From NCBI RefSeq assembly GCF_024223415.1, contig NZ_CP100500.1: 64,000 nucleotides of DNA. One strand, given 5' to 3'. Below the pieces are notes generated by a model. The model made no database searches, was not told the origin of the DNA, and saw only the letters and a program-made list of their open reading frames with translations. Within the stretch, counting starts at the first letter, position 1. Each line of letters begins with the position of its first letter. Position numbers and translations under genes: made by a program. Origin of the DNA: Escherichia coli (lineage in GTDB: Bacteria; Pseudomonadota; Gammaproteobacteria; Enterobacterales; Enterobacteriaceae). Positions 37,493-49,652 of this stretch are shown piece after piece.

Positions 37493-37580
37493 GGTGAGGT
37501 GTCCGAGTGGCTGAAGGAGCACGCCTGGAAAGTGTGTATACGGCAACGTATCGGGGGTTCGAATCCCCCCCTCACCGCCA
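37493..37580 (+). tRNA. serW: tRNA-Ser (anticodon GGA)
   Basis: 88-nt GGTGAGGTGTCCGAGTGGCTGAAGGAGCACGCCTGGAAAGTGTG...GGTTCGAATCCCCCCCTCACCGCCA with long variable arm; downstream of infA as for serW. Confidence 0.93.
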
Positions 37581-37587
37581 GATATTG

Positions 37588-37622
37588 AGCGCATGTTATT
37601 GTTTAACATGCGCTTTTTTTAT
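37588..37622 (+). terminator. Intrinsic terminator after tRNA-Ser
   Basis: gagcgcatgtta ttg tttaacatgcgc followed by ttttttt. Confidence 0.6.
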
Positions 37623-37731
37623 TTTTCCTTCCAGGCAGTATGCCACAGGGTATGCCATCTGAAACCGGTTTGTATGAGCCTCGATCACATCTTATCAGAC
37701 AATTTCCGATCTTTGAGCATACAGGGCAAAG

Positions 37732-38574
37732 CTATACTGCCAGCATGTCAGGATAGTGTCTGACGATAATATCATTCAGTCTGTCAACCAGTTCCGGTTT
37801 CCTGAACGTGATATGCGCGGAGCCTTTCCTGAAGTATCTGATGCTGAACATCTCATCCTCATAGCATGCTTCACCCTGAACGGACCGGATGTGCTCATCC
37901 AGACGAATGAGGATATTGTCCCGGTCAGTGGGTATGGGTTTACCGCTGAACAGATACAGTATCCTTTCCAGGTCGGCAAGCCGCCCGGCCTGCGGACCAT
38001 GGTTCAGACCAAATACCCACCAGTCCCATTTCACCAGGTTGTTGAGGATAATCTTACTGCCGAATTTACAGGGTGACCCGCTGTTGTGCGTCCGGCTCAG
38101 TCCTCTGAAGAGGTTGATGACGCCCCGTTCAGCCATTTCATCCCTGTTACGGTGCAGTTGTTCAGACGTACTCAGGATATTCGCTTCGCTGATTTCCGGA
38201 AAATTATCCTCCTCCAGTGAACGGTACCATTCATCACGCGCCTGTGCATCCATCAGACTCAGCATCCCGGAGCGTTGCATCAGGTCACGCCAGATTTCAC
38301 GGTCAAGGTTCCGGGTGATGGCTTTCATTGCGGTTTCCGGTTTTTCCATCAGCCAGCAGCCACAGCGAAAATCCTGTTTCACGGCCCAGTCCCGGGCCGT
38401 TTTACCTCCGATGCTTTCTGTCATTACTGAGATTTCTGCCAGTTGCCGGATAAGCCTTTCGGTTTGTTGCAGTGCTTCATTCCGTACCGTCACAACGTGC
38501 CGGATACTGGTTGAGCAGATAACGTCCGTATGTCCGTTAAGCGTTTCCGGACGGGAGACTGTGATATCAGACAT
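37732..38574 (-). CDS. Hypothetical island protein (280 aa), possibly DUF4942-type
   Basis: Long ORF at the tRNA-proximal end of the island; family assignment from memory only. Confidence 0.4.
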   Translation of the reverse strand: MSDITVSRPETLNGHTDVICSTSIRHVVTVRNEALQQTERLIRQLAEISVMTESIGGKTARDWAVKQDFRCGCWLMEKPETAMKAITRNLDREIWRDLMQRSGMLSLMDAQARDEWYRSLEEDNFPEISEANILSTSEQLHRNRDEMAERGVINLFRGLSRTHNSGSPCKFGSKIILNNLVKWDWWVFGLNHGPQAGRLADLERILYLFSGKPIPTDRDNILIRLDEHIRSVQGEACYEDEMFSIRYFRKGSAHITFRKPELVDRLNDIIVRHYPDMLAV

Positions 38575-38670
38575 AACCGATATTCCTTTTTGCAGATAAA
38601 TGAAAACGCCAGCCGTATTCGGACTGGCGTCAGTGGAATGAATCGTGGTGAGTGAGATGATGAGTGAGAC

Positions 38671-38868
38671 TCACAGGTTCTGGTGCTGAAGCTGCAGCTG
38701 GCGCAGGGTGCGGATATCCTCCCTGGCCTGTTCGATACAGGGCAACAGTGCTGCCGAATCCGTTTTATCCTCATCGTTGTCGAAGATAATGCAGGAGCCG
38801 CAGTCGATATTGTCCTGCAGCCACGCAATCAGAATATCCGGTGCTGTTTCTGTGGTTAATGATTTCAT
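38671..38868 (-). CDS. Hypothetical small protein (65 aa)
   Basis: ATG at 38868; Cys-containing acidic protein MKSLTTETAPDILIAWLQDNIDCGSCIIFDNDEDK. Confidence 0.3.
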   Translation of the reverse strand: MKSLTTETAPDILIAWLQDNIDCGSCIIFDNDEDKTDSAALLPCIEQAREDIRTLRQLQLQHQNL

Positions 38869-38887
38869 ACGGTGTCTTTTGTCCCGG

Positions 38888-39376
38888 TTACCAGTCGAAA
38901 GTGGGAAAACCCGGCAGACATTCAGCGCCGGCATCCAGATGAATGAGACTGACGCCATAACGCCGGATGAGAGTGACAACCAGACGACGAAACGTTTTTG
39001 ACAGACCCAGGCGTTTAAGCCGCAGAGCCGGGTACGACCACGCATCAGTACGTAACAGATATCCGCTGCCTGTAAAATGAATCCATTCTGATTCGCCGTT
39101 GTCATTCGTCTGATGCGACAGCGAGTACAGCCAGGCATTGTCCTGCTCCGTGATATGTGCGGTACTGCAGCGTATGCCGGTAAGGGCCGCAAATGGTGGC
39201 ATGCAGTCTGCTGAGGTCCGGTCAGATTCATCAGCAACACGAAGGGAACAGCCATTATCGCAGACCACGTTAATCAGTTCAGCGAGATTAACACCATCGA
39301 CGTCAGCGACAATGCGCCCCATGTTCAGTGCCTGTACGTTAACGCTGTCGGCTTCCAGTGTCAGGGACAGTTTCAT
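38888..39376 (-). CDS. Hypothetical protein (162 aa) translationally coupled to cbtA (YeeW-position)
   Basis: Start overlaps cbtA stop (ATGA). Confidence 0.35.
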
Positions 39377-39750
39377 GGTTTCACCTCACAGTGTTTACCC
39401 AGGGTGATGTTGTTCACCATTCTGTAGTGGCTGCGGGTCATCAGGCCGGTCGCCCGGCGGGCCCGGAGAATATCAATGCTGCTGATTAACTGCGATGAAG
39501 CTCCTGCGCTGAATCCCGGCTGGTCGGTACGCACCAGCGCGTATTTTTCCACAAGAAAGTTCACCGCATCACACAGTGAAATACCCGCCTCAATATGCTG
39601 CTCAATCACACGTTCATCGGCGAACGGTGTGTCATTCAGCGTGAGGCCGTAGTGCTGGTCCAGCAGCCGGGTGAGCAGTGTCTGCCAGATTTCAACCGGA
39701 GACGGGCAGCGCGATGTTGCCCGTACGTGTGTGTCGGGGAATGTTTTCAT
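39373..39750 (-). CDS. cbtA: CbtA/YeeV-family cytoskeleton-binding toxin
   Basis: 125 aa from ATG 39750; [66 protein letters not shown] matches YeeV/CbtA family. Confidence 0.75.
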
Positions 39751-39808
39751 CTTAAGTACTCTGTAACAGGTGATGATAAAGAAGTGCTGTCCGGGGTTAT
39801 GCGGTGGT

Positions 39809-40174
39809 TCAGGGTGTTGCCGGTGTCGGATAAATGGCGATATACACGTAACCACAACTGCCGAGGGTGTCGGCATCGCAGGTCAGCCCTTTCGCATACA
39901 GTGTCACGGTATGCTGATGGCGGGGACTGAGTTCACCGCTGGTGAGCATGAGTTCCAGCTGTTTCATCAGCAGCGGAAAGGCCTGGTCCAGGTGGTACGC
40001 ATCTGCGTCGCTGAACCGGCCTCTGATACCGGCGCGGTCTGCAAGGTAATGCAGGCGGTTACCCTCCTGCACCAGACGGGCACCAAAACAGGGTGTCACG
40101 GTGCAGGGCAGTCCCCACTAGGGGCGGTCGCTGTTGTCGTCAGGATGCGTTGTCCCGGTGAGTGTGTCTGACAT
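39809..40174 (-). pseudogene. cbeA: CbeA/YeeU-family antitoxin interrupted by in-frame amber codon
   Basis: ATG 40174 (GAGGA upstream) reads MSDTLTGTTHPDDNSDRP then TAG (plus 40118-40120) where family has W; remainder GLPCTVTPCFGARLVQEGNRLHYLADRAG... is intact. Confidence 0.55.
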
Positions 40175-40224
40175 GATAAAGTCCTCACTGATAATCGGTT
40201 AAGAATGGTTTTAACAATGACGGG

Positions 40225-40881
40225 TCAGCCGGTGCGCAGACCGGCTTCGGTGAAGGTGTATCCGTTGATGAGAAGGGCCTCATCCACGGCGTCGTCTGAG
40301 GTCAGCCAGTCGTACTCGTTTTCCAGTTGACTGTATAACCAGAAGGCAAGGTCCCGCAGGGCGTCACAGACAACGGTTTCCGCGCTGGCTGTCATTGCCT
40401 GTCCGGTCGGACTGTCCCGGGTGACGGTGATATCCATGCTGTACGGATGGCAGTAGTGTCCCCGGTGGCGGATTTCAGCCTGAAGCTGCCGGAAGTTACG
40501 CTTCTGCACCGCCTGCAGGGCATCCGCGATACGATGAAGCTCACGGTCCTGCGGGGCATATTCCCTGATTTTCCGGGGTGCCGCTGGCTGCCAGCGCCAG
40601 CGTCCTTCAAAACAGGCTCCGTCCCCCTGGCTGCAGAATCCGCTGAACCAGATGCACGGCTCTTCCATAAACCTGCCGTTGCTGAGCCGGATAACACGCT
40701 GGCGGAGGGCAATCCCGACAATCTCACAGACCGTCCTGAAGTCCTCATACACGTTTTCATACCAGTTGCTGTCAGCATGATGCTGACGGTACCATTCACG
40801 GGCCTTCTCCCGTGCTGTGGCGGAAAGTTCATCCGGCGTATACACGGTGGTGATGATAATTCTGCTCATCCGCATCTCCAC
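40225..40881 (-). CDS. Hypothetical Cys/His-rich protein (218 aa) between yeeT-like and cbeA-like genes
   Basis: Intact ORF, ATG 5 bp after yeeT-like stop; motifs CIWFSGFCSQGDGACFEG and HRGHYCHPYSM. Confidence 0.45.
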   Translation of the reverse strand: MEMRMSRIIITTVYTPDELSATAREKAREWYRQHHADSNWYENVYEDFRTVCEIVGIALRQRVIRLSNGRFMEEPCIWFSGFCSQGDGACFEGRWRWQPAAPRKIREYAPQDRELHRIADALQAVQKRNFRQLQAEIRHRGHYCHPYSMDITVTRDSPTGQAMTASAETVVCDALRDLAFWLYSQLENEYDWLTSDDAVDEALLINGYTFTEAGLRTG

Positions 40882-40885
40882 TGAC

Positions 40886-41107
40886 TCAGTTCAGGGTGAC
40901 GCTCATCAGCCGGACATACGGGCCAAAACTGTCCTTCCGGCGTTCGGCAAACACGGCAAGCACACCGGGGATATCCTGCACTTCACGACCGGTATACGCT
41001 TCAGCACTGCCGTGCCAGCGGTATTTACCGGTACAGAACGGAAAAAGACGGGATGACGGATACTGACGGTGAACGCGCATGGCTTCACCACGGGTGATGA
41101 TTTTCAT
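40886..41107 (-). CDS. yeeT: YeeT/YpjJ-family protein (DUF987)
   Basis: 73 aa MKIITRGEAMRVHRQYPSSRLFPFCTGKYRWHGSAEAYTGREVQDIPGVLAVFAERRKDSFGPYVRLMSVTLN. Confidence 0.75.
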   Translation of the reverse strand: MKIITRGEAMRVHRQYPSSRLFPFCTGKYRWHGSAEAYTGREVQDIPGVLAVFAERRKDSFGPYVRLMSVTLN

Positions 41108-41196
41108 GAGAACAGTCCTCCTGAATGTGAAAGTGAGAAACAGCTGAGAAAGAGAAACTGAAGTGACAATATGAAGGTGGCTGTGACGGTGACGGA

Positions 41197-41673
41197 TTAA
41201 AGCAGACCGTGTTCCGCAAAGGAGAACACCCGGCTGCCACCGACTATCAGATGGTCCGGTACCCGGATATCCACCAGGGCCAGTGCCTGTACCAGACGTT
41301 CAGTGATAAGGCGGTCTGCCTTACCGGGTGTGACCTCACCGGACGGATGATTGTGCGCCAGCACCACGGCAGCGGCATTGTGGTACAGGGCGCGTTTAAC
41401 CACCTCCCGGGGATGCACTTCCGTGCGGTTGATGGTACCGGTGAAGAGGGTTTCACCGGCAATCAGCTGATTCTGGTTGTTCAGGTACAGCACCCGGAAC
41501 TCTTCCCGCTCCAGTCCCGCCATGTGCAGAATCAGCCATTCCCGTGCCGCATGCGTGGAGGTGAAGGCCACGCCGGGTTCATGAAGATGGCGGTCCAGGG
41601 TTTTCAGGGCCCGCTGAATGAGGCTGCGCTCGCCGGGCGTCATCGCGCCGGGCAGAAAGGAAATCTGTTGCAT
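41197..41673 (-). CDS. yeeS: RadC-like JAB/MPN domain protein (YeeS/YfjY family)
   Basis: JAMM motif HNHPSGEVTPGKADR; start ATG 41673 (MQQISF) with GAGG upstream. Confidence 0.7.
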   Translation of the reverse strand: MQQISFLPGAMTPGERSLIQRALKTLDRHLHEPGVAFTSTHAAREWLILHMAGLEREEFRVLYLNNQNQLIAGETLFTGTINRTEVHPREVVKRALYHNAAAVVLAHNHPSGEVTPGKADRLITERLVQALALVDIRVPDHLIVGGSRVFSFAEHGLL

Positions 41674-41684
41674 AACCTCACCCC

Positions 41685-42158
41685 TCAGTCGATGATGCGC
41701 ATAATGGCGCTGCATTCCGGATGCTGCAGGGCGTAATCCCGCAGCCGGTAATAATGGACCGTCATGGCATAATGCTCCGTACGGCAGGCGTGATGACTGT
41801 AGGCCATCAGGCAGGCGGCAATGCCGGCGGCTTCAGGGCTCATTTCCGCGCGGTTGCCGTTCATGGTGTTAAACAGTGCCCATGTTTCGTCATCATCGTC
41901 ACCCGGTTCGGGAGCCATAAATGCGCCGCCGTTGTTCAGGGTGTACATATTCCAGATACCCCCACTGTAGTCTTCACACAGACGGTCCATCCAGCCGAAG
42001 ATTCGGGGCTCAAGGGTCACCCACTGCGGAATGAGGCCAAAGTGCTGCGGCCAGAAGCTGATGCGCTGTTCGTCAGGCACTGGGCTGGCAACCAGCTGAG
42101 GTGGATTATTCCCGGATGCAGTGGTTGCGGAAACAGAGTCATGCGAAACCGTTTTCAT
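41685..42158 (-). CDS. Antirestriction-like protein (YfjX/YafX/KlcA family)
   Basis: 157 aa acidic protein in the conserved CP4-island position upstream of radC-like gene. Confidence 0.5.
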   Translation of the reverse strand: MKTVSHDSVSATTASGNNPPQLVASPVPDEQRISFWPQHFGLIPQWVTLEPRIFGWMDRLCEDYSGGIWNMYTLNNGGAFMAPEPGDDDDETWALFNTMNGNRAEMSPEAAGIAACLMAYSHHACRTEHYAMTVHYYRLRDYALQHPECSAIMRIID

Positions 42159-42262
42159 AAGTGAAATCCTTAAGTGAATAAGTGAACAAGTGAATTAAGG
42201 AAATAAGTGAATGAATAAGTGAATAAGAGAGAAAAGACAGGGCACTGACAGCGTCGCGTTAA

Positions 42263-43081
42263 TCAGCGCATGCTCTCCAGCAGCGTTTCTGCCATCACCC
42301 ACAATGCGCGGTTGAGTTTTATATCGGTATCAATGCTGTGAATGGCCCGGGTATGGATACGTTTTCCTTTTGCACTGCGACCGGAAATCCCGCCTTTCAG
42401 CATATTCTCCTGGATGGTCTGATAAGCACTCCACAGGTCCTTACCGTAATCCTCCCGGCGTCGTGGTGTCAGAATGTCGGCGGTGGTGACGGGCTGATGT
42501 TCGTCACCATAACGGTAAGTCAGTGCCGCCTGTGCCAGCGCCTGGCGTGCCGGTGGCGGCAGGACCAGCGACTGCATGGCATCACGCTTCTCCTCTATCC
42601 GGTCAAACACGCCCACCACCTCGTAAGCCCCTTCAATGACTCTGTCCACCACATTTCCCCGGTGCGGAACACGCACTTCCCCCAGAGACTGACCGCAGAC
42701 GCATCCGTTCTGGCAGACGAACCTGAAGTAACCCGGCAGCATCTGGTAGCTGGAGGTACCGTCATGAGAGTTGAGCAGAATAATTTCAGGGACATGTTGT
42801 CCGTTTATCTCCCCGTCACGGCGCAGACGCAGCATGTGTTTGGTATACCCCCGGCGGCCCGGGTCCCGCACGCGGGTCTGGCAGGCAAAGAAGGGCTGAA
42901 AGCCTTCCCGCTGCAGGCTTTCCAGCACGGTAATGGTGGGGATGTATGTATAGTTCCGGCTCCGGGAGGTGTGCTTATCTTCCCCGAAAATCCCGGGCAC
43001 ATGGTGCATCAGTTCTTCATGTGTCAGCGGACGGTCACGGCGTATCTGGTTCGCATAACCAAAACGACTGGCTAATCGCAT
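42263..43081 (-). CDS. DUF932-family protein (YfjQ-like)
   Basis: 272 aa; N-terminus MRLASRFG...PLTHEELMHHVP and overall pattern recalled for YfjQ family. Confidence 0.5.
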   Translation of the reverse strand: MRLASRFGYANQIRRDRPLTHEELMHHVPGIFGEDKHTSRSRNYTYIPTITVLESLQREGFQPFFACQTRVRDPGRRGYTKHMLRLRRDGEINGQHVPEIILLNSHDGTSSYQMLPGYFRFVCQNGCVCGQSLGEVRVPHRGNVVDRVIEGAYEVVGVFDRIEEKRDAMQSLVLPPPARQALAQAALTYRYGDEHQPVTTADILTPRRREDYGKDLWSAYQTIQENMLKGGISGRSAKGKRIHTRAIHSIDTDIKLNRALWVMAETLLESMR

Positions 43082-43124
43082 ACTTTGCTCCTTATCAGTG
43101 GTTAAGACTGACTGACGTAATCAA

Positions 43125-43157
43125 TGAAAAAGCCGCGTCTCCCGGAGAAGACGCGGC
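43125..43157 (-). terminator. Intrinsic terminator upstream of DUF932 gene
   Basis: Minus strand gccgcgtct tctccggg agacgcggc followed by ttttt. Confidence 0.4.
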
Positions 43158-43605
43158 CTGATGGATGAAATGAATGAGGGTTTACCGAAGTCCTTCAGCA
43201 TTGAGGTGAAGCCGCCGGAAATGTGTTCCCGGGTCATCTTCGATAAATACATTGCGGTAAGCTGTTATGGCAGAAACCGCCTGCACGTGTGAGAAAGGTC
43301 TTCGCTTAAGACGTACTCTGTGTGATCCGGTATTTCTGGTTTCTCCTGATTAATAGCCTCTGCCACAAAGTGTGGAAGAGGCTGAATCATGGTATTTACT
43401 TCTTTCATCATGGTGGTATTCCGGTGTATTAACCGGGATCTGATTCCGGAAAATAAGGAATAAACGTAAAGGAGCAGAATGCTCGTTATGCCAGACACGC
43501 AGGGGGTAATGCCTCTTCCGGGTGGTTAACCATATTGCCGGGATGTGATGCTTCATATTCCATAACAGAGCGTTGCCTGATGATACTGACTACCAGTGGT
43601 TTGAT

Positions 43606-44060
43606 TCACATATTGGTCGCTGCCCGTTGCTGTACGCCGGCGGCGAAAATGATCTCCAGAGCATTCTGATCGATAACACGGGCCAGATTCGCGTTCAGAT
43701 TTTCAGTTTCATTTTCGGTCAGCAGGAAACTGACGGCAAGCCACGTCACCTGCTCCTGAATCATGGCAGGAATTTTGATGCGCTCCTCTTCAGCCAGAGT
43801 ACCGGCAATTTTTCCTGATACCACTGCAATCATTCCTCCCGGAACGCCGCCCGCCAGCGAATATGAAATAACCGGGGTATGCGTTCAGTGATACAGCCAG
43901 CCAGTAAAGCCGGACCGGACAGACACAGCAATATGAGTCCTGCCAGCACAGACGCTGTGCTGGTTAATGCTCTGAACAAAAAGCGAAGAATGGCAAATCC
44001 TGCGATAAGCAGGATCAGCACGCCGACTATCTGTAACATAGTCCCCCTGATAAATATCAT
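43606..44060 (-). pseudogene. YeeR-like membrane protein remnant split into two overlapping ORFs
   Basis: Two 75-aa ORFs in different frames overlapping by 4 nt downstream of antigen 43. Confidence 0.3.
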
Positions 44061-44159
44061 GTTATTGTTAATGCCAGCGAATGTGGCGTTGAATATCCGT
44101 TGCGCCGGTCCGGGTCCCGATCATGATGACCGGGACCACAAAGAGGCAATGCAGAATTG

Positions 44160-47100
44160 TCAGAAAGTCACATTCAGCGTGGCCTGACCGTTATAACCTT
44201 CAGCGCTGCTGCCGCTGACGCTGCGGGCATAACCGGCCTGAACACCCAGGGTGATATTTTCCCGGACACGGGCTTCCAGTCCGGCCTGCAGGTCCAGTGA
44301 TGTGCCATTCTGTGACGGTGAGAACATCATGTTACTGCCGGCTGCGGCTGTACCCATGCTCATGTCTCCCCGGGAGCTGAAGGTGCGGATAACAGAAGGC
44401 TGTACCCACCCGTTCACCGGCAGTTCACTCACACTGTGTCTGGCACTGCCGCGCAGGGTGTCACGGGATGAGCTGCCTTCACCAAAGCTCATATCGTTGT
44501 GGCTGCCCAGACGGAAACCGGCACGCACATGTTGTGCACTGCCATGCCCGAACTTCACATAACCGGCGTTATCCTGGCCGTCATCCAGGGAGAGTCCCTG
44601 CCAGGTGTACTGCAGTTGTGGCTCCAGCATCAGATGGTCAGTGATACTGAAGGGCAGACCGGTTTCCAGTGAGCCCAGCCAGCCCCGGCCCCGGGCGCGG
44701 AAGTCGTTACTGTCCGATGACGCTTTCATGCTGTGGCGGGTTTCCTGTGCCACAAGGTCAGCCCACAGGCCGGAGGACGTGTGTACCAGATTCAGGTATC
44801 CGCCCAGGCTGCCGGCATCATCCCGGACCGTGCCGGCGCGGGAGCCGTTATCATCCCTGACATCAACGGCAGAATGACCCGCAGCACCATATACCCCTGC
44901 GGTCACAGACATACCGGCAACCTCTGTTCTCAGCAGGTCCCCCTCCAGACGGACGAAGCCATAGCTGCCGCTGCTTTCCGGCGTGGCCCCACGGACAATA
45001 CCGCCGTTGTTACCGTGACCGAGATGACCGCCCTGAATGCTGAGGCGGACGCTGTTATTTTCACCGTTCACATCGCTCTGATGGCTGCGGGAGCCTGCCA
45101 GAATCCGGTCGTAGTCCATCCCCTGCGTCAGCATGGAGGCGTACAGGGGGACTTCCGCGCGATAACGCGTTTCACTGCGCAGATACCAGCTCTGGTCACC
45201 GTCACGGGTCAGGGTGTAGTCATACACCCCGGCCTGCAGCGGGTTGCCCTGAACAAAAGCGCCTTCCTCCGTGGTGGCACCATTAATGGCCTCCACCACC
45301 TGAATGCCCTTACCGGTGGTCGCCAGCCCCGACGCACTGTTGCCGGCGTTCACCAGGTTCAGGGTGGTTTTCCCGGTGGCACTGCCACCGTCAATCACCA
45401 GCCTGTCGGCATTGTGCTGTGCCAGGTCAGGGCGGACACGCAGGGTGATGCTGCCGTTCTGTCCCCGGAGATTTTTCACCGTCAGGGTGGCCGGCGTGAA
45501 GGCTCCGCTGCGGGTGCTGACGAAGTTAATCTTCCCGGCATGACGGAGTTCATCCACCACCGATTTCACCGTGGCGTTGTCCGGAATGTTCCAGGTGGCA
45601 CCGGAGGTGAGGGTGACATCCGTGGGGTCAATGGCACCGGTCAGCACGGTGCTGCCGGTCAGGCTCAGGGTGGTACCGCGCCGGGCAATGATATCCGTGG
45701 TGACGGTACTGTCGGCCAGCGTCAGTGCGCCTTCGTTAAGGCTGACGGCGTTCCGGGTGAGAGTGGTGTTGCTGACAGTGAGTGTGCCGCTTCCTGATTT
45801 TTCCACCCTGCCGTTACCGGTGAGTACGCCCCCCTGCAGAAGCGCATCGCCTTCACGGGTGACCAGGGTGCCGTCATTCACCGTCTTCCCGGAGAGGGTC
45901 AGCGTGGCACCGTTATTCAGCGTGGTGGTGCCGGTCAGGGTTCCGCCCTGCGCGGTGAGCTGCCCGCCGTTCACGGTGGTGTCACGGGCGCTGTCGCCGG
46001 CCTTCAGGGTAAAGGCGCTTCCCTTGCCCAGCGCGAGTCCTGAGGCGTGTCCGCTGCCGATACTGAAGGCACCGCCACCGTCATACTGACCGCTGACAGT
46101 GGCACCGGAATCGGCCAGCAGCATACCGCCTCTGCCCATGGATACCGTGGTGGCTGTACCACCGGTCAGGACTGCCAGCGTGCCCCCGTCATCCACCCGG
46201 GTGTCAGTGGCCGTGTGACCGTTCAGTACATCAAGACGACCGCCTGACTCCAGCAGCACGCCGTCAGCCTTTCCGTCTGCCACGGAAAAGTGGCCCGCAC
46301 GGTTTGTGCCGGAGACGGTGGCTGCCGTACCGGTAACCAGCGCACCGCCCGTATTCTGGGTGACGGCGGTGGCCTTACCACCGGCATTCACCTGCAGCTT
46401 TCCTTTCTGATTGATGGTGGTATTCTCAGCCACCGCTCCCGTCTTCACCACCTGCCAGCCACCGTCGTTAATCACCGTGTTCTGTGCCACACCGCCCTGA
46501 TGAACATACTGGTTGCCGCCGTTAAGGGTGGTGGACAGAGCGTGACCATGTACCGACTGGTCGCCACCGGCCTGTATGGTGGTTTCTCCTGCCATACCTT
46601 CGCCCGCAATGACCTGCCGCCCGTTTCTGTTCACGGTGGTGGAGAGTGCCATCCCTGCCACGAGCTGACCGGTGGCATCGTTATCAGAGTCCGGCCCGCC
46701 TTCAGCGCCGGTATTCACAACGGTGTCGGTTGCCACTGCGCCGGGTTTAACGGTCTGATAACCGTCGCGGTTAATGACAGTACCGACAGCCCTGCCTCCC
46801 TGATGTACCCACTGCTCACCACCGTTCAGGGTGGTGTTCACCGACTGCCCCCGGAGGCTCTGCCCCCCGCCGGCATGGATAACGGTGTCAGTGGCTGTAC
46901 CGCCCGTCATCACAACCTGACGACCATTTGCGGTGACCGTGGTGTTGCTGGCTGTCCCGCCATTATCTATCCACTGCCCACCGTTGTTTTCCTCACTGTC
47001 CGGCCCCAGCTCCAGCCCGGTACTAATGGTCATGCCACTGGCCGTACCGAAGACAATCTGGTTGTCGTGATTTGTCAGCGTACCGCCATTCACTGTATCT

Positions 47101-47279
47101 CCTGCCTGTACAGCGCTGTCAGCAGCCGGCGCGGGCGCTGACATGACTGCAGCAAGGGACAGTGCGGCAGCCACGCCCGCACGCTTCCCCCGCGTGCGGG
47201 CCAGTTCAGAGGCCACCGCGAAGGTGCCCGTGACGTGATTCCATACCAGCCGGTAACTGGTGTTCAGATGTCGCTTCAT
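44160..47279 (-). CDS. flu: Antigen 43 (Flu/Cah) self-associating autotransporter
   Basis: 1039 aa; signal peptide, Thr/Gly-rich beta-helix repeats, C-terminal beta-barrel ending QATLNVTF. Confidence 0.9.
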   Translation of the reverse strand: MKRHLNTSYRLVWNHVTGTFAVASELARTRGKRAGVAAALSLAAVMSAPAPAADSAVQAGDTVNGGTLTNHDNQIVFGTASGMTISTGLELGPDSEENNGGQWIDNGGTASNTTVTANGRQVVMTGGTATDTVIHAGGGQSLRGQSVNTTLNGGEQWVHQGGRAVGTVINRDGYQTVKPGAVATDTVVNTGAEGGPDSDNDATGQLVAGMALSTTVNRNGRQVIAGEGMAGETTIQAGGDQSVHGHALSTTLNGGNQYVHQGGVAQNTVINDGGWQVVKTGAVAENTTINQKGKLQVNAGGKATAVTQNTGGALVTGTAATVSGTNRAGHFSVADGKADGVLLESGGRLDVLNGHTATDTRVDDGGTLAVLTGGTATTVSMGRGGMLLADSGATVSGQYDGGGAFSIGSGHASGLALGKGSAFTLKAGDSARDTTVNGGQLTAQGGTLTGTTTLNNGATLTLSGKTVNDGTLVTREGDALLQGGVLTGNGRVEKSGSGTLTVSNTTLTRNAVSLNEGALTLADSTVTTDIIARRGTTLSLTGSTVLTGAIDPTDVTLTSGATWNIPDNATVKSVVDELRHAGKINFVSTRSGAFTPATLTVKNLRGQNGSITLRVRPDLAQHNADRLVIDGGSATGKTTLNLVNAGNSASGLATTGKGIQVVEAINGATTEEGAFVQGNPLQAGVYDYTLTRDGDQSWYLRSETRYRAEVPLYASMLTQGMDYDRILAGSRSHQSDVNGENNSVRLSIQGGHLGHGNNGGIVRGATPESSGSYGFVRLEGDLLRTEVAGMSVTAGVYGAAGHSAVDVRDDNGSRAGTVRDDAGSLGGYLNLVHTSSGLWADLVAQETRHSMKASSDSNDFRARGRGWLGSLETGLPFSITDHLMLEPQLQYTWQGLSLDDGQDNAGYVKFGHGSAQHVRAGFRLGSHNDMSFGEGSSSRDTLRGSARHSVSELPVNGWVQPSVIRTFSSRGDMSMGTAAAGSNMMFSPSQNGTSLDLQAGLEARVRENITLGVQAGYARSVSGSSAEGYNGQATLNVTF

Positions 47280-47318: not shown

Positions 47319-48857
47319 TTATTCAGCTGGCAGTGCTATGCGCCACGGAAGCAGTTCGCTGACCCGGTTGACCGGCCAGTCTGCTATGACGCCAAGCACA
47401 TGGCGAAGGTAGCTTTCTGGATCCACGTCATTCAGTTTGCACGTCCCTATCAGGCTGTACAGTAGCGCTCCCCGCTCACCACCATGGCCAGAGCCGAAGA
47501 ACAGGAAGTTTTTACGACCCAGACTTACCGCCCGCAGGGCATTTTCAGCGATGTTGTTGTCGATTTCCACCCAGCCATCGTTCGCATAGTACGTCAGTGC
47601 CGGCCACTGGTTAAGTGCGTACGCGAACGCCTTCGCCAACTCTGAGTGTCGCGACAGGGTCTTCATCTTTTCACGCAACCAGCTTTCCAGGGATTTCAAC
47701 AGCGGTTTCGTTTTTCGCTGACGTTCAGCAAGCCGCTGCTCTGCCGGCATTCCCCTTATATCCGCCTCTATGGCGTACAACTGACCGATCTGCTCCAGGG
47801 CTTCTTCCGTCAGTGCTGACGGGATGCGGACGTGCACATCGTGGATCTTTCGGCGGGCATGAGCCCAGCAGGCAGCTTCCGTTATCCCACCATTGCGATA
47901 CAGCTCGTTGAACCCGGCGTACGCATCCGCTTGCAGCACACCGCTGAAGCAAGCAAGATGAGTCTGCGGATGGATGCCTTTTCTGTCCGGGCTGTAAGCG
48001 AACCACACTGCAGGTGCCAACGCTGACCCGGCATTGCGGTCATCACGAACATACGCCCACAACCGCCCGGTCTTCGTCTTCTTATTACCCGGCATCAGTA
48101 CCTGGACCGGGGTATCATCGGCATGGAGTTTGCCGTCAGTCATGACATAGCCATGAAGCGCCTCTTCCAGCGGAGACAGCAGCCGGCAGCATGCATCCAC
48201 CCAGCCCGACAGCAGTGAACGGCTCAGCTCCACACCTTGCCGGCCGTATATTTCTGACTGGCGATACAGCGGGGTGTGCTCTGCATACTTCGAGGTCAGC
48301 ACGCGGGCCAGCAGCCCCGGTCCGGCGATACCCCGCTCGATGGGCCGCGAAGGTGCAGGTGCCTGCACGATGGCATCGCACTGAGTACAGGCATGTTTTT
48401 CCCGTACCGTCCGGATAACCCGGAAGGCGCTACGCATCAACTCCAGCTGTTCGGCGGTATCCTCGCCCAGATAGCTCAGTGAACCGCCGCAGTTCGGGCA
48501 GCACGGCGCCGCAGGCAACAGTCGCTTTTCGTCACGGGGTAGTGATTCAGGGAACGGCTTACGGATGCGGGTCTGACGCAACGGACGCTGTACTGCCGGG
48601 TCATACACCCTACCAGTCAGCGTATCGCTCTCTTTCTGAAGCTGGTTCAGATCGGCTTCCATTTGTGCGATACGGCGGGAGACTTTTTCGGAACGACTGC
48701 CGAAGTTCATCCGGCGGAGTTTATCCAGCTGCGCCTGCAGATGGTCTATTTCGCGCTCCCGGTTGCTCAGCTTTTCCTGCAGGGCGTGGATCAGCGCTTC
48801 CTGTTCGGCCAGGCGCTGTTTCAGCAGGAAGATGTCGTCAGAAGAGATGTCGTTCAT
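47319..48857 (-). CDS. IS66-family transposase (TnpC/orfC)
   Basis: 512 aa with leucine zipper N-terminus, CxxC zinc motif and conserved DDE-like core. Confidence 0.9.
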
Positions 48858-48906
48858 AAGCCCGTATTTTACCGGGCTTATTCTGTGACAACCAGGATAA
48901 AGAGAT

Positions 48907-49254
48907 TTACAGCATGGTCAGGGAGGTCAGCAGCCGCTTAGGCTGTCGCCAGTCGATACCTTCCAGCAGCATCGCCAGCTGCGCCTGTGTAAGGAACACT
49001 TTGCCATCACGGGCTGACGGCCAGGCGAAGCGCCCACGCTCCAGCCGTTTGGTCAGGAGGCACAGTCCGTCACCGGTGGACCACAGCAGTTTAACCTGAC
49101 TGCCGCTGCGGCCCCGGAAAATGAAAACATGGCCGGACATGGGATCGTCTTTCAGCGCCGTCTGTACTTTCGCAGCCAGGCCGTTGAAGCCATTTCTCAT
49201 ATCGGTGATACCGGCAACCAGCCAAATTTTGGTCCCGGAAGGTAAAGGGATCAT
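48907..49254 (-). CDS. IS66 Orf2 (TnpB) accessory protein
   Basis: 115 aa [31 protein letters not shown]... Confidence 0.85.
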
Positions 49255-49652
49255 CGCTTCAGTTCCTGTATCAGCAGAGTCAGGAGCTTTTCGCTGACAT
49301 TGCCATTGAAGCGGAGCGTCCCGTGCCGGAACGTTACCTCACAGCTGATACTGAGGGTTTCCGGGTCCTCTGCGAGCGATTCTGGCTGTTCGGCAGCTGC
49401 ATCGAGAGTCACAGGAAGTAGCTGGGGGCTCTCTGAAGAAGGTAATAGCAGCTTTCCCTCGCGCCATTGTTGTCGCCATTTGAACAACAGATTGGCGTTA
49501 ATGCCATTTTCAAGAGCAAGTTTTGAGATGGATATCCCGGGTTCACAGGAGGCAGCAACGAGCTGCTGTTTAAATTCGGGAGGATAATTAGGGCAGCCTT
49601 TTCGCCTGCCGGGAGTCACATTTTTCTGCATATCTGACACTTTGGTTCCCAC
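49251..49652 (-). CDS. IS66 Orf1 (TnpA) HTH accessory protein
   Basis: 133 aa; overlaps orf2 start (ATGA). Confidence 0.8.
   Translation of the reverse strand: MGTKVSDMQKNVTPGRRKGCPNYPPEFKQQLVAASCEPGISISKLALENGINANLLFKWRQQWREGKLLLPSSESPQLLPVTLDAAAEQPESLAEDPETLSISCEVTFRHGTLRFNGNVSEKLLTLLIQELKR

Follow-up and report, generated by a model that had tools for sequence, protein, structure and literature searches.

The gene that lies between the yeeT-like (DUF987) and cbeA-like genes of a tRNA-associated island in Escherichia coli, within the 64,000-nucleotide (nt) stretch of contig NZ_CP100500.1 (assembly GCF_024223415.1) that was analysed here and is called the window below, is intact and, as judged from its sequence, almost certainly belongs to a very large, uncharacterised family of mobile-element proteins, DUF8835 (PHROG 5162). 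The gene is already catalogued and stands in its usual place. It is close to certain from alignment that the DUF8835 gene is an ancestral member of such arrays and that the arrangement in the CP4-44 island of strain K-12 is a derivative of it by a 633-bp deletion. As to function, comparative analysis gives a probability of roughly 45% to the reading that DUF8835 proteins are establishment factors of mobile elements, acting early after entry and plausibly directed against host defence or at nucleic acids or nucleotides; the odds are put below even because no neighbour and no fold gives a specific activity.

The open reading frame (ORF) is, by homology, a real gene and not a chance ORF, because a word-indexed search returned 3121 homologous clusters at 90% identity, including homologues with E values from 1e-154 to 1e-80, and because phrog_5162, a family whose function is listed as unknown, matches over its full length (E=1.1e-34, residues 3-212 against profile positions 3-197 of 201). 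An exhaustive search with a family profile extends the set to 6133 clusters at 50% identity, of which 1037 reach E<=1e-30. The exact protein of 214 amino acids (aa) is already in NCBI on 45 public contigs, and the identical RefSeq protein is WP_077473181.1; RefSeq names used for the family are 'DUF8835 domain-containing', 'antitoxin of toxin-antitoxin stability system' and 'hypothetical protein'. Three RefSeq records (NZ_AP045773.1, NZ_CP135671.1 and NZ_CM176589.1) carry the product string 'DUF8835 domain-containing pootine', an apparent typographical error. Pfam-A gave no match even at E<=10, the copy used being apparently older than the DUF8835 entry, and NCBIfam gave no family match for the ORF protein; the PADLOC defence-system models matched with no family, and a PDB sequence search produced chance matches only. 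A cyclic-nucleotide phosphodiesterase model scored 12.6 bits against a cut-off of 400 and was set aside as noise.

The family is widespread. By megablast, the gene is present in 1967 of 5426 complete E. coli genomes, at 2832 places that are almost all chromosomal, with as many as eight in one genome, and the description of it as an orphan in an earlier note on this DNA is thus untenable. DUF8835 relatives occupy 545 places among species-representative genomes, and they are also found on 108 plasmids (mostly alphaproteobacterial), in 59 phage records, and on at least 503 viral contigs of IMG/VR. Beyond E. coli, the closest relatives have identities of about 60-64% and come overwhelmingly from Alphaproteobacteria. 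Members are almost exclusively stand-alone proteins of about 210 aa.

The ORF runs uninterrupted on the minus strand from 40225 to 40881 and, as described in the earlier note, is intact and lies between the yeeT-like and cbeA-like genes, encoding 218 aa when counted from a GTG at 40881 that is 4 nt beyond the stop codon of the DUF987/yeeT-like gene. The likelier start is the ATG at 40869, which gives a 214-aa product with the N-terminus MSRIIITT; it is preferred because a GGAG lies 6 nt upstream and the RefSeq start of the identical protein is the same. The DUF987/yeeT-like gene is the upstream neighbour, and the cbeA/yeeU-like gene begins 50 nt downstream. The features of the region are as follows.

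40225..40869, minus strand: coding sequence of the DUF8835 / PHROG 5162 family, 214 aa from ATG (ORF, RefSeq and phrog_5162 match).
40870..40885, minus strand: 16-nt spacer after the DUF987 stop codon, with GGAG at 40876-40879 (direct reading of the sequence).
40886..41107, minus strand: DUF987 (yeeT-like) gene, the upstream neighbour.
39809..40174, minus strand: cbeA/yeeU-like antitoxin gene with a nonsense codon 19 at 40118-40120 (comparison with WP_032289760.1).
39373..39750, minus strand: cbtA-like toxin gene, intact, 125 aa.
41197..41673, minus strand: gene of the RadC/JAB family in the same co-directional module.
41685..42158, minus strand: antirestriction protein gene of the module.
42263..43081, minus strand: DUF932 gene, first of the conserved module.
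37493..37580, plus strand: tRNA-Ser(GGA), the integration site at the island end, with infA and aat to its left.

This order, DUF932 - antirestriction - RadC - DUF987 - [DUF8835 gene] - YeeU - CbtA, is that of the module in enterobacterial tRNA islands. A scan of 37600-44200 for promoters and terminators gave no more than chance, with none between yeeT and cbeA.

In K-12, the DUF987 genes are indeed followed directly by the antitoxin in all three arrays (CP4-44, CP4-57 and CP4-6), as stated in the earlier note, and the yeeT-cbeA region of K-12 was aligned with the window and with other gene-bearing arrays. The 73-bp spacer between yeeT and cbeA in K-12 CP4-44 opens with the ribosome-binding site and codons 1-8 of the DUF8835 gene (ATGAGCAGAATTATCGCCACTACCG, encoding MSRIIATT), 32 of 35 nt being identical to a gene-bearing allele over this segment; the match resumes 14 nt past the stop codon of the DUF8835 gene, such that 633 bp are missing in K-12. 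Because the K-12 spacer retains the ribosome-binding site and first eight codons, the gene is read as ancestral and not as inserted. The proposal that it had been inserted into the yeeT-cbeA junction is accordingly reversed, K-12 itself carrying the deletion remnant; presence in the canonical arrays, named beforehand as the observation that would contradict the orphan and inserted framing, is what was found.

Both alleles are common. The K-12-type deletion junction is covered to at least 80% in 3499 genomes, while the junction of DUF987 with the gene (a 216-nt query) is covered to the same extent in 1648 genomes and the junction of the gene with YeeU in 1397. About one in five E. coli DUF987 arrays still has the gene (2832 against 12912 places), a figure that is rough since megablast thresholds differ between the queries. 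The textbook K-12 arrays are deletion derivatives, and K-12 is thus a poor reference for the ancestral island module. In the CP4-57 array of K-12 (locus L010, 4920-5869), the antirestriction-like and RadC-like genes are now annotated lfgA and lfgB ('CP4-57 prophage protease'), so that at least one RadC paralogue of these arrays has been assigned an activity unrelated to DNA repair.

Conservation was counted in an alignment of 126 diverse full-length members, and the family signature consists of SGFxSQGDGAxFEG, YxH, RD, and a C-terminal NxYxFxxxG, all of which are at least 90% conserved and present in the window protein. Phage homologues with only 26-38% identity retain SGFxSQGDGA, Leu-His112, Tyr139-x-His141, Arg172-Asp173, Phe206, and Gly210, and the conserved polar set comprises Glu14, Gln81, Asp83, Asp108, Tyr139, His141, Arg172, and Asn202. 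The conservation pattern of the SQGDG loop, Tyr139-x-His141, Arg172-Asp173, and Asn202 suggests a putative catalytic or ligand-binding site and not a passive DNA mimic; the pI of the ORF protein is 5.55, only mildly acidic and unlike that of DNA-mimic antirestriction proteins. AlphaFold2 run with the 126-sequence alignment returned a confident model, with a predicted local distance difference test (pLDDT) score of 96.1 and a predicted template-modelling (pTM) score of 0.89, from which we infer a soluble, single-domain alpha/beta protein whose predicted fold is unseen among solved structures. The same predicted fold is shared with family members in the AlphaFold database (TM-score 0.96-0.99), and comparison of the model with PDB structures matched no anti-defence, solved antitoxin, or zinc-binding fold.

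The earlier note had suggested metal binding from clustered Cys and His residues, and the two peptides on which it drew, CIWFSGFCSQGDGACFEG and HRGHYCHPYSM, are both found in the ORF translation. The E. coli protein has six Cys and six His residues, including CxxxxxxCxxxxxxC and HxxHxCH stretches that would suit a zinc-binding protein, but the clusters are not conserved. Cys72 is retained in 37 of the 126 members, Cys79 in 20, and Cys140 in 25, while position 86 holds Cys in 81 members but Ser in 36; of the histidines, His135 persists in 65 and His138 in 48, leaving only His141 (116) and His112 (96) well kept. In phage homologues, the Cys positions are occupied by Ala, Val, Glu, or Ser. With Cys this poorly conserved, a Cys/His metal site is not a feature of the DUF8835 family, and, given also the lack of a structural match to zinc-binding folds, a zinc-binding protein is a very improbable explanation, by far the least probable of those considered.

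Gene neighbourhoods outside E. coli were compared at the 80 nearest loci in other species, the denominators below being the loci with enough flanking sequence. In Alphaproteobacteria, the gene lies in a co-directional block with the order ArdC - DUF2958 - RadC - ParB_N - 138-aa ORF - [gene] - AAA_34/SNF2-like helicase - DUF7146/Toprim - YAcAr. The 138-aa ORF is directly upstream in 69 of 76 loci with a median overlap of 4 nt, the AAA_34/SNF2-like helicase gene is downstream in 54 of 72, and ParB_N (50/59), ArdC (39/48), and Toprim (43/50) genes are similarly recurrent; YeeU and CbtA, in contrast, accompany the gene in only 2 of the 80 loci (Salmonella diarizonae and Mixta). The 138-aa ORF (for example locus L003, 9592-10008) has no Pfam match and likely encodes a partner protein of the DUF8835 gene; it was considered as a relative of YeeU, DUF987, or DUF8835 and rejected, with hhalign probabilities of at most 0.65%. 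On a MOBP alphaproteobacterial plasmid, the order is SSB ... DUF932 - RadC - RadC - ... - [gene], with the same DUF932-RadC core as in E. coli.

These neighbours could also indicate a role in DNA handling for the element itself, be it the start of replication, partition, or the processing of DNA being transferred, in concert with ParB-like, helicase, and primase proteins and not against host defence. The alphaproteobacterial ParB_N, helicase, and DUF7146-Toprim flanks, the presence of SSB and RadC genes near the gene on the plasmid, and conserved polar residues compatible with an enzyme all favour such a role, but lytic phages of very different replication types carry the gene amid small early genes without such partners, and in E. 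coli islands the gene persists although ParB, helicase, and primase genes are missing there. Moreover, the helicase and ParB-like genes alongside it are themselves read as conflict effectors: the literature counts ArdC-N, ParB-like DNases, RadC, and methylase-helicase genes among the conflict effectors that conjugative elements use in the early phase (PMC5512222). A DNA-handling role is on balance unlikely, though it ranks ahead of the other rival explanations.

In some phages, DUF8835 homologues lie in terminal repeats. Those of Caulobacter jumbo phages lie inside annotated terminal repeats and are present in two copies per genome; that of Klebsiella phage Muenster, counted from the genome end, comes sixth and falls within a terminal repeat, and that of Klebsiella phage fENko-Kae01 is in a direct terminal repeat. 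The phage homologues sit amid small genes of unassigned function, with no CbtA/CbeA nearby. The commonest adjacent family among viral loci (12 loci) encodes proteins of about 200 aa with a PFxGFYxS motif, corresponds to phrog_37559, and at several of these loci lies within a few bases of the DUF8835 gene; it was tried as a DUF8835 relative (for example ORF 9 of locus L148) and dismissed, since hhalign gave no significant relation.

The gene is located among early or establishment genes in islands, conjugative elements, and phage terminal repeats, and plasmid leading regions are known to hold clusters of anti-defence, SSB, and toxin-antitoxin genes (PMC11541004). In the establishment-factor reading, the DUF8835 protein would be part of a gene set expressed by conjugative elements and phages just after they enter a new cell, and would most likely help the incoming element to establish itself. 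Through the putative SQGDG / YxH / RD site, it could plausibly counter a host defence or modify a nucleic-acid or nucleotide substrate to this end, and it would act independently of the CbtA/CbeA pair. The label of anti-defence cargo gene, one of the options in the earlier note, is from genomic context plausible and is the most plausible functional class. A more specific proposition, doubtful at present, is that DUF8835 represents a hitherto unrecognised class of enzymes for early establishment or anti-defence whose fold is missing from the PDB, and that conjugative elements, plasmids, and jumbo phages, the last in their first-entering terminal repeats, have it in common; the CP4-type islands of E. 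coli would keep a relic of it, and a false 'antitoxin' label would have hidden the class in databases.

Several results weigh against the establishment-factor reading. Across Pfam, NCBIfam, PADLOC, and PDB, no known anti-defence, antirestriction, or enzyme family was matched, and literature searches for DUF8835 and for the 'stability system' label yielded nothing on the family. On the MOBP plasmid, a relaxase gene or origin of transfer (oriT) was sought near the gene and none was present within 26 kb, so that a leading-region position is not supported there. Clustering of neighbours at 80 viral loci found them to be nearly all different, the ten most recurrent families being of unknown function or without a match; the viral neighbours are too diverse for guilt by association to yield anything specific. 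A skew of the gene toward the ends of viral contigs is weak (Kolmogorov-Smirnov p=0.002, the ends of metagenomic contigs being arbitrary). Within Enterobacteriaceae, the gene always adjoins YeeU, and in Salmonella diarizonae (locus L029, 9260-11086) and Mixta tenebrionis (locus L098), the order is YeeU-like, YeeU, [DUF8835 gene], CbtA. Finally, some E. coli copies have internal stop codons, and the ratio of nonsynonymous to synonymous substitution rates (dN/dS) among E. coli copies is about 0.4-0.5.

The adjacency to YeeU bears equally on the proposal, made in the earlier note, that the gene is an accessory or replacement toxin-antitoxin component, that is, a second antitoxin, adaptor, or regulator of the CbtA/CbeA module that possibly compensates for the broken cbeA. 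The antitoxin gene downstream is defective, as had been noted: a single G>A change turns Trp19 from TGG to TAG at 40118-40120, and the gene is otherwise identical to the intact WP_032289760.1 allele of strains 23CRST013 and TUM1886, while the toxin gene is intact. The DUF8835 gene is directly upstream of YeeU in E. coli, in Salmonella diarizonae and Mixta it has an ATGA overlap with the YeeU stop codon, and in-frame DUF8835::YeeU fused ORFs of 342-343 aa are present in several E. coli assemblies. However, of the 80 nearest loci outside E. coli, 78 lack YeeU and CbtA, as do the phage loci, and the gene is missing from all three K-12 arrays, with the deletion allele in 3499 genomes. There is no similarity to CbeA, with an hhalign probability of 0.15% and no PF06154 match, and none in sequence or fold to any solved antitoxin, including those of the RelB/Phd/YefM type to which the 'stability system' phrase is attached.

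The fused ORFs were considered as Rosetta-stone evidence and rejected, since DUF987::YeeU and DUF5983::YeeU fusions exist too; with other neighbours also fused, the fusions reflect decay and not a functional link, and they suggest frequent small deletions or losses of stop codons in these arrays. The database label fares no better. The 'YeeU-like antitoxin' annotation of phage homologues traces to a BLAST match on a mislabelled E. coli entry, the phrase 'stability system' is generic in the literature and has been applied to unrelated antitoxins, and the 'antitoxin' label for DUF8835 was reproduced by no profile or structure search and has no support. The toxin-antitoxin role is thus not borne out and is quite improbable, more so than a DNA-handling role or a loss of function in this island. 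Thousands of database entries and some phage annotations wrongly say antitoxin, which may inflate any tally of 'orphan antitoxins' on mobile elements. As to the intact toxin in the window, it is possible that it is tolerated through a truncated antitoxin, through paralogous antitoxins, or through lack of expression. A GTG at codon 26 of the cbeA-like gene could restart translation to give a 96-aa product.

A further explanation holds that the gene, though intact, serves no function here at present and is decaying as a passenger of an element that is cryptic and immobile. In addition to the internal stop codons and dN/dS values given above, about four-fifths of E. coli DUF987 arrays have lost the gene, and the neighbouring antitoxin in the window is already broken. 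Against this, the reading frame is intact and identical or near-identical in at least nine genomes, and identity to alphaproteobacterial copies is about 62% with strong conservation of the motifs; this cross-class identity and motif conservation indicate that the DUF8835 family as such is functional. The passenger explanation also bears on current use in this strain and not on how the protein acts. As an account of the gene it is improbable, somewhat more so than a DNA-handling role, although the DUF8835 gene of this immobile island probably persists as a relic under relaxed constraint.

The island lies directly against tRNA-Ser(GGA). Over 14.5 kb, its eight closest copies share 99.4-99.6% identity, and in every one the similarity stops just before the tRNA gene. 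In strain TUM1886, the island is at the other copy of tRNA-Ser(GGA) (locus L019, 1509-1596), beside ghrA and ycdX, and the same island is thus apparently found at either of two identical tRNA genes, depending on the strain. Beyond the DUF932 gene, the window contains an Ag43-type autotransporter ORF (44160-47279, minus strand) that is intact and encodes 1039 aa, while the near-identical island of TUM1886 has an internal stop codon in it. An IS66-family ISEc8 element (47319-49631, minus strand), with tnpA, tnpB, and a gene for a 512-aa transposase, lies between the autotransporter and a GTPase-family gene (50067-50978). The segment at 52404-63883, beyond the island core, codes for a solute-binding protein and a fused permease of an ABC transporter and, further on, for PxpA-/PxpC-like 5-oxoprolinase or urea-amidolyase-type subunits, a biotin carboxylase, and LysR- and MocR-type regulators.

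The window copy itself matters little, and the residual interest is at the level of the DUF8835 family: highly conserved, confidently modelled, structurally unmatched, and carried by integrative elements, plasmids, and phage early regions, the protein is an inexpensive and clearly delimited candidate to include in screens for anti-defence or establishment activity.

Comparison with known systems places the protein as follows. CbeA/YeeU (PF06154) resembles it in position, as its gene adjoins the DUF8835 gene in Enterobacteriaceae and is in some cases fused or translationally coupled to it, but is about 120 aa in length compared with 214 aa, is unrelated in sequence, and is, like CbtA, not a companion of most DUF8835 members. 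Antirestriction and establishment genes (ArdB/KlcA-type, ArdC, RadC, SSB, and ParB-like nucleases) occur in the same co-directional clusters as DUF8835, and several are likewise common to phages, although their products have no sequence or fold similarity to the DUF8835 protein. The uncharacterised 'LPD' domains of polyvalent proteins (Iyer et al. 2017, PMC5512222) also have conserved, enzyme-like polar residues, are similarly distributed over plasmids, conjugative elements, and phages, and are found solo near ArdC, ParB, RadC, and helicase genes; they differ in that no Pfam LPD family matches the DUF8835 protein, which is itself almost exclusively stand-alone. With the DUF8835/phrog_5162 family there is no difference, the full-length match, motifs, fold, and RefSeq names all being common to the ORF protein.

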